DNA of 64,000 nucleotides from Candidatus Fermentibacteraceae bacterium (GTDB taxonomy: Bacteria > Fermentibacterota > Fermentibacteria > Fermentibacterales > JCC-6). A program made the position numbers and the translations under genes. The notes beneath the pieces are model-generated. The model was not told the origin of the DNA. It was given only the letters and a program-made list of their open reading frames with translations, and did no database searches. The stretch is from assembly GCA_027067855.1 (NCBI GenBank), contig JAMOUX010000011.1, forward strand, positions 12,528 through 76,527, in the 5' to 3' direction. Shown here one piece after another: positions 24,495 through 33,244 of this stretch (its first letter is position 1; the number at the start of each line of letters is the position of its first letter).

Positions 24495-26264
24495 TCAGCG
24501 ATTCACCTTGCAGAGCAGGTACCCGGACACCTGCACGACGGGCTCCAGCGGCCCTCCCTCACCCACGGCGGACAGCAGGGCCACCTTCTTCTCAAGGTCT
24601 CCCGGCATGGGATCATCGGCGCAAAAGTACACATAGTCGATCTTCATCCTGCGCAATACCTTCAACTCATCCTCCACGCCATCATCGAAGAGAAGTTCGA
24701 CGCCGTCCGGATGATTCTGCAACACGAGCACTTCGTGATCGGAAAAATACCTCTCCGGTCTCCACAAGGACAGCAGCCTCGTCCCGGGGGGAAGATTCGC
24801 ATTGGTCCACTCATGAAGCGGAAGCGCGGGAGGAAAATCGACGTCCCGAAAGCCCGCGGGTTCGGAAGCGGATACGAAATCGACGATGAATCTCAATCTT
24901 CCGGGGAAGGACGAAGTCAGGAGCACCAAAGGAATGAGAACGGCCAGGATAATCTCCTTACGGGAAGAAAGGCAATGAAAGCCCAGGGCCGCCATTACGG
25001 GCAACAGGAGAAGCGTATACTTTCCTCCCCACGATACCGGGTCGAAAACCACGGAACACACCAATGCGTACAGCAGGATTCCCGCAAGGACAACGGCGGC
25101 CCTCATCCGGCTCCGCCGGAAAAGAACCGGGACTCCGGCGATGAAAACCGATGCCGTCAGGCCCCACTGCAGAAACAGGTCCTTGAGATTTTCCGCCGGG
25201 GATGCGTGACCGTGCTGTCGCAGCGCATCGAGGGCCGGCACCGTTTCGATCCGCCATGCCGCGTCGGCCGTGAACGGGGGAAGGTGGAAGGGATAGAACG
25301 GCTCGCCGGTCACCAGCAGGTTTCTCAGAACGAAAACGAGCGGAACGGCGGAGGCCAGGAGCAAACCCCTGAAAACCCCGGAGCGTTCACCCGATACAAA
25401 ACCCGCAACCAGGACCGGGACCAAAGCGGCCACCGTCAGGAGAACCGTCCATTTCACCCCGATCGCCACGCCCAACAGGAACCATGCCATGGGTTCGTTT
25501 ACGATCTTCTTTCCTTCCAGCGCCCACTTTTCGAAAACGTAAGAGAAAAACGCCGTGGTAAAAAATACGGCCGTCATGTCCACTTTCGCGAATGATCCCC
25601 ATTTGGAGAGGATCGGTGAGGACAACCCGAGAAGCAGGAGGGACATGTACCCCATCCAGCCGAGGCGGAACGACCTCGCCGCCAGAAGAAAAGAAGCCGC
25701 CAGCATGCTCACCTGGAATACCTGCAGTATGCTCAATTGGTCCAGCCTGCCGTCGGACAGAGCCGCGGGCCATGTTGCAAGCATCTCCCCCACGGACGGA
25801 AAAAACGAGAAAATCGTTTCATCCAGTATATGCATCCTTCCGGCGTCGAGCCATCTGTCGGGTTGCACGGCGTACGTGATGAGGGGATCCACCATGCCGT
25901 GAGGCAACGCGGCGTGAAACAGCAGGGAGAGAAAAAGAACCGAAAGCAGGAAAGCCGCCGGGATGAAAAGCCGGAACGGGGATGGTATCCGCGGAGGATT
26001 CCTTCGCAATTTCCGCAGTATGTCCAGCATTCCCACGGACGCGGCCGGTATGATCAGGATGGAAAGAAACCACCTGGTCAGAATGCCGAAAAGCGAGAGC
26101 GGCAACGTGAGGAATACATGCGCCAGCATCCCCGGCACCACCGCCGGGAAAAACCGGTCGCCTCTCCTCCGGGCCGGAACGAGCTTCGTAACCAGAAGCC
26201 CGGTTCCATGAAAGGCCGCCCAGATCAATGCCACGCGAACGGCTGTCCATGCCGCGTGGACCAC
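24495..26264 (-). CDS. Large polytopic membrane protein, paralog A (putative GT-C-like glycosyltransferase), C-terminal soluble domain
   Basis: About 10+ predicted TM helices. Shares blocks with paralog B at 29444..31318 (VRVALIWAAFHGTG vs FRVALVWAAFDGTG; YAVQPDRWLDAGRMHILDETIFSFFP vs YLVQPDRWLNHGHIHFLEETKFSGFP; similar C-terminal ~150 aa). Family not recognised. Confidence 0.45.
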   Translation of the reverse strand: MVHAAWTAVRVALIWAAFHGTGLLVTKLVPARRRGDRFFPAVVPGMLAHVFLTLPLSLFGILTRWFLSILIIPAASVGMLDILRKLRRNPPRIPSPFRLFIPAAFLLSVLFLSLLFHAALPHGMVDPLITYAVQPDRWLDAGRMHILDETIFSFFPSVGEMLATWPAALSDGRLDQLSILQVFQVSMLAASFLLAARSFRLGWMGYMSLLLLGLSSPILSKWGSFAKVDMTAVFFTTAFFSYVFEKWALEGKKIVNEPMAWFLLGVAIGVKWTVLLTVAALVPVLVAGFVSGERSGVFRGLLLASAVPLVFVLRNLLVTGEPFYPFHLPPFTADAAWRIETVPALDALRQHGHASPAENLKDLFLQWGLTASVFIAGVPVLFRRSRMRAAVVLAGILLYALVCSVVFDPVSWGGKYTLLLLPVMAALGFHCLSSRKEIILAVLIPLVLLTSSFPGRLRFIVDFVSASEPAGFRDVDFPPALPLHEWTNANLPPGTRLLSLWRPERYFSDHEVLVLQNHPDGVELLFDDGVEDELKVLRRMKIDYVYFCADDPMPGDLEKKVALLSAVGEGGPLEPVVQVSGYLLCKVNR

Positions 26265-26363
26265 CCCCGGAAGCTCTTCCAGGATACCTCCCGTTCGTTT
26301 ACGATTGCAACTTGCTTCCCCGCCATTTATATCATTCCCCGATTACAATGGAAAGCCGGTAAC

Positions 26364-31819: not shown

Positions 31820-31903
31820 GGCATTTTGATTAATATTAATTCAGCTTTTGTATATATTATGCACGTTACTGCCCGTGGCATTGCATTTTGCAATATGTAG
31901 TTC

Positions 31904-33244
31904 TCAGGGTCCGACGAAGAAACGCCTTTGGGGGTTGTCTTCCACCGTGGCCGCCACCAGGCGGGCGACCGCCTCTTCCCTGCCGATGCCCGCGCCTCCC
32001 ACATCCTCCAGGCCCCTGGACAGGTCCAGGTCCGGGTTGAAAGCGACAGCCAGCCTTTCTATCCACGGAGAGAAGTTCCCCGTGGAGAGTATCGCGAGGT
32101 CGGGCCGCCTGTCGTCCACGTACTTCAGCACCCAGCCGCCGTAGAGTATATCGTTGTCCGTAACGAAGATCCCGGCGTCCGGAGGCGCGTTCCCGTAAAA
32201 CGCCCGCACCTCTTCCTCCTGGTCGGGAAGGGGCTCCCAGAGAAACACTCCGGCGGCCAGGACCACGGTTCCCAGCGCGGCGGCGGCACGCCGCCCGGCT
32301 TTCTCCTCCACCAGCCCGAAACCCATGAACGCCAGGGCCAGCAGCGTGAAAAGCGTAAGTATGCCCGTCTGGGTCGTACCCGACGCCATGGGGTTCACCA
32401 GCAGCACGAACAGCGCGTCCATAACCGCGAGGAGGAGAAGAGCGGCCAGTATGCGCCGCCCGCCTTCCGAAACGCAGCGCCAGACCCCGGCCGCGGCCAT
32501 GGGAAGCAAAACCGGCCACAGCATTCCCCGGAGGGCATCGAGATGGTTCGCGAGAACCCCGCCCGAAAAGCCGCCCATGCCGTCGCCGTATACCTCCCTG
32601 TAGCCGGCGGCGGAAACCTGCCTCGCGAACCTGCTCCAGGAATCGGCTCCGCCCCAGTCCACCGGCACTCCTCCCGCGGAACCCAGGGGAAGCGCCAGGT
32701 AGAGGCCCAGGCCCATGACCGTTCCCGCGGCGAACGCGAACGGACGGATTCCTTTCCGGCGGTACAGCAGGGGAATGAATGCGCCCATGGGATGAACCGC
32801 CAGGGCCAGGCCGAGCAGGAAGCCGCCTTCCAGGTCCGGAGCGGGCCTTCGCAGGAGAGCCGCCGCATAAAGCACCAGGAGCGGGCAGTACGCATCCCAC
32901 ATGAGCAGCCTTCCCGACACGCCCGGCAACAGCAGGACTCCCGCCGCGAACAATACCCGGGGCAACCCGCGCCTTTCCGCCAGCAGCAACAGCAGCAATC
33001 CGGACAGGACGGCGAACAGCGCTCTCAGGCACGATCTTCCCAGGAACACCCACGACACTCGCGCGAGAAACGACACCAGGGGAAGCCCCGGCGGATGGTC
33101 GACCCCTCCGAGGCGCGCCACCGTCAGGAACTCGCCCCCGTCCTCGACGGGTATTCCCCTCTGCCCCGCGAGATACCCGACCGACACCGTAACGGCGAGG
33201 AACAGAGCCGCCGCGGCGGCCTTCGGGAATCTTCCCCGGATCAA
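31904..33244 (-). CDS. DUF2723/TMEM260-like GT-C membrane glycosyltransferase (protein O-mannosyltransferase-like)
   Basis: N-terminal VEDGGEFLTVARLGGVDHPPGLPL matches the DUF2723 signature (D.GE....A..LG..HPPGYPL). About 11 TM helices. A TTG start overlaps the pilR-like stop by 2 nt (cgTTGAtc). Confidence 0.55.
   Translation of the reverse strand: MIRGRFPKAAAAALFLAVTVSVGYLAGQRGIPVEDGGEFLTVARLGGVDHPPGLPLVSFLARVSWVFLGRSCLRALFAVLSGLLLLLLAERRGLPRVLFAAGVLLLPGVSGRLLMWDAYCPLLVLYAAALLRRPAPDLEGGFLLGLALAVHPMGAFIPLLYRRKGIRPFAFAAGTVMGLGLYLALPLGSAGGVPVDWGGADSWSRFARQVSAAGYREVYGDGMGGFSGGVLANHLDALRGMLWPVLLPMAAAGVWRCVSEGGRRILAALLLLAVMDALFVLLVNPMASGTTQTGILTLFTLLALAFMGFGLVEEKAGRRAAAALGTVVLAAGVFLWEPLPDQEEEVRAFYGNAPPDAGIFVTDNDILYGGWVLKYVDDRRPDLAILSTGNFSPWIERLAVAFNPDLDLSRGLEDVGGAGIGREEAVARLVAATVEDNPQRRFFVGP

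Follow-up and report, generated by a model that had tools for sequence, protein, structure and literature searches.

Introduction

TfpW provides the only route to pilin glycosylation by an enzyme of the glycosyltransferase C (GT-C) type that our literature searches found. It is encoded beside pilA and glycosylates the group IV pilin of Pseudomonas aeruginosa with D-arabinofuranose, drawing in the periplasm on a sugar carried by polyprenyl phosphate; some species have the genes that make this sugar clustered with pilA-tfpW (bioRxiv 10.1101/2020.04.19.049825). The other known routes are of the PglL/TfpO ligase type. Here we describe a 64,000-nucleotide stretch of DNA (the window) from a metagenome-assembled genome of Candidatus Fermentibacteria (Hyd24-12), near Aegiribacteria, in which four GT-C membrane proteins (M1 to M4) are encoded around two type IV pilin genes (pilA1 and pilA2). 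An identical contig in public metagenome assemblies and the named homologs support this placement. We propose, with a probability of roughly 0.6, that these proteins glycosylate the pilins in the periplasm and draw on polyprenyl-phosphate sugars.

TfpW is the closest system that we found in the literature, and the locus described here is of the TfpW kind, varied. Both have polytopic GT-C proteins encoded beside pilA, an adjacency that is conserved across the genomes compared here, and both have an acidic motif in the first periplasmic loop; TfpW has a C-terminal tetratricopeptide repeat (TPR) domain and M2 a TPR-like tail, as judged from the published description of TfpW only. In contrast, TfpW is a single enzyme co-directional with pilA, whereas four GT-C genes of three unrelated sequence families, mostly convergent, lie around two pilins here, and DprE1/DprE2 arabinose genes were not seen. 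The proposed outcome is also that of PglL/TfpO (PilO) enzymes, which O-glycosylate type IV pilins in the periplasm and are often encoded beside pilA (PMC3643930, PMC9239064). Unlike the proteins described here, none of which matched Wzy_C in Pfam or NCBIfam, those enzymes belong to the Wzy_C/O-antigen-ligase family and transfer preassembled undecaprenyl-diphosphate oligosaccharides. Our searches found no publication that ties pilins to homologs of TMEM260/DUF2723 or to PMT_2-type enzymes, nor any about pilus glycosylation in Fermentibacteria.

Results

The four membrane proteins were of the GT-C type by fold or homology and fell into three sequence families. M1 (24495-26264, minus strand) has 589 amino acids (aa), M2 (26364-27914, plus strand) 516 aa, M3 (29444-31318, plus strand) 623/624 aa and M4 (31904-33244, minus strand) 446 aa. 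Single-sequence Pfam and NCBIfam matches of all four were below the curated cut-offs, and because single-sequence Pfam, NCBIfam and PDB searches were sub-threshold or empty, family profiles and structure models were required; we built family alignments from database homologs to place the proteins. The multi-pass N-terminal transmembrane module superposed on solved GT-C enzymes, and conserved acidic residues were found in the first extracytoplasmic loop after core transmembrane helix 1 in M4, M2, and M1/M3. The positive-inside rule places the loops with invariant acidic and basic residues on the periplasmic side. In profile-profile comparisons M1/M3 was weakly related to M2 (70% probability, E 4e-5) and neither was related to M4, therefore giving three sequence families. 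There was no pairwise similarity between M2 and M4, and sequence searches with the M1/M3 and M2 family profiles turned up no relative of solved structure.

The linkage between pilins and GT-C proteins was kept across the phylum. We scanned one genome per species with the M1/M3 profile, which gave 44 loci, all from Fermentibacteria, and mapped them with custom hidden Markov models (HMMs) for the three GT-C families, the pilins, the secreted protein S and the Pil proteins. These loci held 50 distinct M1/M3-family genes. A convergent pilin gene was found within 2.5 kb, and mostly within 100 bp, for 32 of the 48 that had at least 600 bp of downstream sequence; the genes without one belonged to the M2-paired clade or the sugar-operon clade described below. 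Wherever the pilus locus was recovered, an M3-type copy was tail-to-tail with pilA. In an independent scan of metagenomes, with M4 as the seed, we recovered 28 loci; the order pilR, M4, pilin was found in 26/26 of those with enough flanking sequence, mostly with M3-type and/or M2 genes next. The outer neighbors of the module varied by lineage (histidine kinase, a GT1 enzyme, S, sugar operons) and the GT-C/pilin pairs persisted.

The window joins two modules that are conserved in the phylum. In one, Obg adjoins M1, M1 is divergent from M2, and M2 is convergent with pilA2; in the other, S and M3 are convergent with pilA1, upstream of which are M4 and pilR. Pilins of the pilA2 type pair with M2 and those of the pilA1 type with M3. 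The position of pilA1 beside pilR was kept across the phylum, and pilA2 orthologs that likewise end at SW adjoin M2 in L008, L027, L030 and L035 (L-numbers are our labels for related-genome loci compared with the window). The divergent pairing of M1 with M2 beside Obg is as in L029 and L034-L039. Fermentibacter has a single module in which M2 is divergent from an M1-type gene that converges on pilA, with M4 and pilR upstream of pilA. Loci of the Sabulitectum type lack M4 and have pilA directly after pilR.

A preliminary description of this DNA had presented the region as an island of pilins and GT-C enzymes with duplicated modules. Gene calls located all of the genes that it listed, at the coordinates it gave, and its count of four GT-C proteins in two or three families agrees with the three families found. 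It had named two computational results that would speak against it, namely transporters among the membrane proteins and a lack of pilin/GT-C linkage in related genomes; neither was obtained, because all four proteins are GT-C, none is a transporter, and the linkage is kept phylum-wide. The term island did not hold. The GC content is about 60% in the window, with no compositional break across the pilin/GT-C region, and the block constitutes the phylum's core type IV pilus locus. We therefore rejected horizontal acquisition, given the even GC content and the phylum-wide conservation of the locus.

The two pilins are paralogs with a conserved C-terminal motif. pilA1 (31373-31753, minus strand) encodes a 126-aa type IV prepilin, and pilA2 (27925-28281, minus strand) a 118-aa type IV prepilin that ends in SW. 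Both have the prepilin signature MKKG|FTLIELM, with a leader ending in G, and then a hydrophobic N-terminal helix; both matched N_methyl of Pfam (pilA2, E 7.5e-9; pilA1, E 8.9e-9) and TIGR02532. They are 52% identical to each other (E 2e-39), as expected from the proposal that they are paralogs. The N-terminal helix of pilA1 matches the Geobacter and Myxococcus PilA structures, and pilA1 is the probable major pilin. The C-terminal segment pointed out in the preliminary description proved near-invariant in 49 pilins of the phylum: in the motif H-G-x-x-x-x-G-x-x-S-W, H is present in 48/49, G in 49/49, S in 46/49 and W in 49/49. Three cysteines and one histidine, C40 (ACRxN), C81 (CP), C101 and H112 (HGxxxxGxxSW), are present in 48-49 of the 49. 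This pattern suggests a metal site, or a disulfide with further ligands, and the role of the C-terminal segment, with the three invariant cysteines and the histidine, may be structural, rather than that of a glycosylated C-terminal Ser as in P. aeruginosa 1244 pilin, which the preliminary description had brought to mind. A search for solved homologs of the pilin globular domain gave none.

The presence of M4 co-occurred perfectly with a longer segment between C40 and C81 of the pilin. These two cysteines are spaced by 40-48 residues in M4-bearing loci (27) and by 34-36 in loci that lack M4 (13), so that the loop is about 6 residues longer where M4 is present.

In one related genome the locus had a further gene of interest. 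L005 encodes a 915-aa M1/M3-family protein beside pilins (16510-20583), and a Sulfatase-domain (PF00884) protein precedes it. The superfamily of this domain also includes phosphoethanolamine transferases such as Neisseria PptA, which hints at further pilin modifications.

M4 is related to human TMEM260 over the GT-C core. M4 lies between pilR and pilA1, and the claim that a DUF2723/TMEM260-like enzyme occupies this position was borne out by its family profile. As a single sequence, M4 matched TMEM260-like/DUF2723 (PF11028) at E 7.6e-3 (16.5 bits versus a cut-off of 24.2, over only 34 profile positions) and the TMEM260 structure at E 0.02, and a few of its homologs carry a precomputed PF11028 match or the NCBI name "DUF2723 domain-containing protein". 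The family profile matched human TMEM260 (PDB 9rql) at E 1.9e-7, with profile positions 31-390 aligned to chain positions 47-468. This match covers the entire GT-C core within the membrane and reaches the beginning of the luminal domain, which is Rossmann-like. The soluble C-terminal domain of M4 is about 105 aa, of which only the first 50 residues or so (about 341-390) are inside the match.

TMEM260 transfers O-mannose in a protein-specific manner, with extended peptides as acceptors; alanine substitution of each of D52, H67, R264, Y267 and D441 abolishes activity, and R355 contacts the donor mannose (PMC10214176; bioRxiv 10.64898/2026.03.17.711096). On the bacterial side of the family, PMC10214176 says no more than "distant homologs in bacteria". 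The M4 family has invariant E34, D35, E38 and H50 in loop 1, and Y215 is invariant too. In the HMM alignment D35, H50 and Y215 of M4 correspond to D52, H67 and Y267 of TMEM260, and the motif RPD(I/L) is common to both families. In contrast, R264 is replaced by A212 and R355 by T293, so that both arginines are lost, and the catalytic base D441 is one residue off the invariant D365 of M4 (motif DND-LYGGW). M4 also lacks the TPR "fingers" of TMEM260, for which there is no room because it has 446 aa versus 707. Given the three residues that are kept, the two that are lost and the one that is offset, M4 looks like an active, shortened TMEM260-type enzyme with a Rossmann-like "palm", and its donor sugar probably differs from that of TMEM260.

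M1 and M3 form a divergent branch (DUF8201) of the PMT_2 superfamily. They are 34% identical over their full length (E 8e-86), in agreement with the proposal that they are paralogs, and M1 holds every invariant residue of the family alignment (A1). The preliminary description had left this pair in an unknown family, which the following comparisons correct. M3 matched PMT_2 (PF13231) at E 1.3e-3 (19.4 bits versus a gathering threshold of 26.1), and M1 had no match to it; both matched the LIC_10190 family of NCBIfam at about E 1e-9, below threshold. PMT_2 was matched at E<=0.01 by 15 of 53 members of the M1/M3 family (best 2.3e-6), and its gathering score was passed by 8 of the 10 nearest relatives tested outside the family. 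An exhaustive search of 1.84 billion representatives with the M1/M3 profile gave 30 at E<=1e-30, a gap to about 1e-25, and then thousands of remote relatives. All close members with a source name were from Fermentibacteria-type assemblies. Thus, relative to the PMT_2 superfamily (ArnT, bacterial PMT, GT39/GT83-type), the LIC_10190 family and DUF8201, M1/M3 is a sharply separated clade.

The invariant residues of the M1/M3 family include D140, D150 and E174 in the loop 133-186, and also K241 and K283. Three additional N-terminal helices precede the conserved acidic loop, and M3 has a C-terminal alpha/beta domain that resembles that of AglB. We rejected a STT3/AglB-type (GT66) oligosaccharyltransferase identity for M3: its WWGAKYG motif is intramembrane and is also present in the M2 family, and a WWDYG motif was not found at the start of the C-terminal periplasmic domain. 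The invariant WWGAKY of M1/M3 (residues 430-435 of M3) resembles WWDYG; it is membrane-embedded and aligns to GGWAxGPRH of the M2 family. To judge from these alignments, WWGAKY/GGWAxGPRH may be a previously unremarked motif common to both GT-C families.

A neighbour-joining tree of the M1/M3 family had three clades. The first is pilA-adjacent and includes M3 of the window. The second (clade B) is M2-paired and includes M1; in Aegiribacteria its members are beside Obg-DprA, and in Fermentibacter they directly abut pilA. The third consists of 587-aa members inside sugar-biosynthesis operons. The duplicated modules of the preliminary description were not upheld: M1 and M3 are in different ancient clades, each with orthologs elsewhere, and we rejected a recent tandem duplication of a pilin and glycosyltransferase module.

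M2 has a GT-C glycosyltransferase fold. Its sequence matched the LA_3751/2 putative glycosyltransferase family at E 2e-9, below threshold, and its structure model (pLDDT, the predicted local distance difference test score, 91.6) scored 26.1 with ALG12, 20.9 with ArnT and 19.7 with Pmt4. The model also gave TPR matches for the short C-terminal tail. In loop 21-70 of the M2 family, D57 and K69 are invariant and D49 and D68 near-invariant.

S (28530-29447, plus strand) is the co-encoded secreted protein that had been proposed, and is secreted or anchored. The gene call of 305 aa has a signal or anchor sequence followed by three tandem repeats of about 90 aa (L.PG...G.Y...A.D..G..Y in an alignment of 18 homologs). 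Homologs in some lineages carry a lipobox. S had no match in Pfam or NCBIfam and is probably beta-rich.

Both pilin genes have upstream sigma-54-type elements. On the minus strand, -24/-12 elements are located at 28323-28338 upstream of pilA2 (AGGCATGTTTTATGCA) and at 31803-31818 upstream of pilA1 (TGGCATGAATCATGCT). Among 68 pilin genes of the phylum, 59 had an element of this type (TGGCA-N6-TTGCT) at 50-100 nt upstream, compared with 2 of 68 shuffled controls. We called them with a scored consensus (at least 9/11 matches); a strict pattern had missed most of the promoters. Control by PilR fits these upstream elements. pilA1 is followed by a strong intrinsic terminator hairpin (31323-31350, minus strand; 12-bp stem with 9 GC pairs, then a T-rich tail) that lies in the 54-bp gap to the M3 stop codon. 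The pilR stop shares 4 nt with the M4 start, and the end of S likewise overlaps the beginning of M3; pilR-M4 and S-M3 are thus translationally coupled.

In some relatives, sugar-biosynthesis genes are beside or in an operon with S-M3 or M2. In L003, L050 and L051 these encode a DegT aminotransferase, epimerase/dehydratases, ATP-grasp proteins, methyltransferases, a GT1 enzyme and a flippase-like LPG_synthase_TM protein. The sugar-modification operons (L050, 1-10000; L003, 3197-8795; L051, 11595-18001), which run into S-M3 or are beside M2, also hold a metallophosphatase gene and a gene of the 587-aa M1/M3 clade; the window has no such operon.

The remaining genes of the block, all on the minus strand, are those of regulation and the pilus motor. 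pilR (33241-34662), a sigma-54 activator with Response_reg, Sigma54_activat and HTH_8 domains of Pfam, and pilS (34625-36286), a histidine kinase with HisKA and HATPase_c domains, form one operon with M4. pilC, pilT and two tandem pilB genes (36315-42202) encode proteins with T2SSF, T2SSE and MshEN+T2SSE domains. The two PilB-type ATPases (MshEN+T2SSE; 38610-40415 and 40427-42202) are kept phylum-wide, and an additional PilT-like ATPase is encoded at 12318-13427, 25 kb from the pilus operon. Directly downstream of the pilB genes is a gene for a 1866-aa SprA_N (type IX secretion/gliding) protein (42362-47962, minus strand). On the other side, Obg (23422-24426, minus strand) adjoins M1. The window also has an LpxC-FabZ fusion (62864-63937, minus strand) and LpxA (62106-62948, minus strand), and is consistent with a diderm envelope bearing lipopolysaccharide (LPS). 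Long antisense open reading frames, such as 31928-33286 (plus strand), opposite M4, and a TTG extension of M2 from 25737, were rejected as high-GC artefacts.

Discussion

Based on the GT-C fold or homology, the conservation of active-site residues, the gene order, the coupling and the promoter elements, all observed or computed here, we favor pilin-directed periplasmic glycosylation by the GT-C enzymes. Sugars would be activated in the cytoplasm and loaded onto polyprenyl phosphate, and a flippase-like protein would bring them to the periplasmic face, both steps relying on genes outside the window. The prepilin would reside in the inner membrane, its globular domain facing the periplasm, and be O-glycosylated there by the enzymes of the neighboring genes, with both pilins transcribed from PilR/sigma-54 promoters. 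M3 would be the primary pilin-directed enzyme, its C-terminal periplasmic domain, perhaps with the coupled repeat protein S, engaging the acceptor. M4, co-transcribed with pilSR, would add a sugar to an extended pilin segment as a lineage-specific addition, using a split donor site and Rossmann-like palm arranged as in TMEM260, and the M1-M2 pair would extend the glycan or serve the second pilin, pilA2. A more specific form of this proposal is tentative, and we hold it to be possible but doubtful: that the glycan is built directly on the pilins by three dedicated GT-C families, each matched (M3 to pilA1, M2 to pilA2, M4 to the longer loop), possibly together with a phylum-specific pilin fold stabilized by metal at the Cys3-His residues.

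The GT-C enzymes might instead carry out general periplasmic protein O-glycosylation, with S, lipoproteins and other surface proteins as clients and the pilin as one client or none. PMT-type enzymes usually have a broad spectrum, TMEM260 targets Ig-like IPT domains (PMC10214176), and S is an exported, probably beta-rich protein of three repeats whose gene is coupled to M3; moreover, M1-M2 pairs in Aegiribacteria adjoin Obg/DprA, away from pilA1. However, S is absent from many loci in which an M3-type gene is convergent with pilA (L004, L018, L019, L022, L023 and others), where the invariant neighbor is the pilin. M4 also belongs to the pilSR operon, and the pilin paralogs have particular GT-C partners. 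We consider general O-glycosylation unlikely as the function of the locus.

We think it quite unlikely that the locus serves envelope-glycan synthesis coordinated with piliation, either modification of lipid A or LPS, as by ArnT, or the building or decoration of an exopolysaccharide, for which the Myxococcus exopolysaccharide that works with type IV pili is an analogy. Genes from all three GT-C families are directly against a pilin gene and the convergent pairs survive rearrangements, by sequence M4 is closest to a protein-specific transferase, and polysaccharide export or polymerase genes were not found in the surveyed flanks. Scaffolds or chaperones for pilin insertion or assembly, GT-C in fold and non-catalytic or differently catalytic, like PIG-U/GAB1 in the GPI (glycosylphosphatidylinositol) transamidase, seem highly improbable: all three families have invariant acidic positions in the first periplasmic loop, alongside further invariant GT-C hallmarks, active transferases score far above PIG-U, and D35, H50 and Y215 of M4 match essential residues of TMEM260.

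Several points weigh against pilin-directed glycosylation. GT-C enzymes elsewhere also modify lipid A, polysaccharides and teichoic acids. Relatives of M2 outside the phylum (in Vicinamibacteria and another lineage) were not beside pilins, and the M2 family is therefore not intrinsically pilin-specific. Across the whole window there are no genes for a GT2 polyprenyl-phosphate sugar synthase, a flippase or nucleotide-sugar synthesis. The loss of both arginines, the offset catalytic base and the missing fingers set M4 apart from TMEM260. Shared descent, and not function, may in part explain why gene order is kept inside one phylum, and phylogeny also confounds the association of M4 with the pilin loop, which may come down to one or two events. 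The organism is uncultured, and we infer pilin glycosylation from synteny, and likewise infer a glycan, its donor and acceptor and the sequence in which the enzymes would act. Enzyme-substrate pairing is favored by the way in which pilin paralogs pair with GT-C proteins and by the co-occurrence of M4 with the longer loop, both subject to the same confounding by phylogeny.

If pilin-directed glycosylation is correct, then the three GT-C families found around pilA throughout the phylum would make up a second GT-C route to pilin glycosylation, more elaborate than that of TfpW. In the more specific and doubtful form of the proposal, the bacterial TMEM260/DUF2723 family would gain its first assigned substrate and function through M4, and protein-specific O-glycosylation by this family would predate metazoans. 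The human enzyme is disease-linked, and the locus offers a concrete, testable substrate hypothesis for its bacterial homologs; the M1/M3 clade, the short form of M4 and the repeat protein S are families without a characterized member. Pilin glycosylation alters pilus surface chemistry, recognition by phage and predators, and adhesion. Fermentibacteria are abundant in anaerobic digesters (PMC5030696), and their pili in digesters probably govern attachment to flocs.

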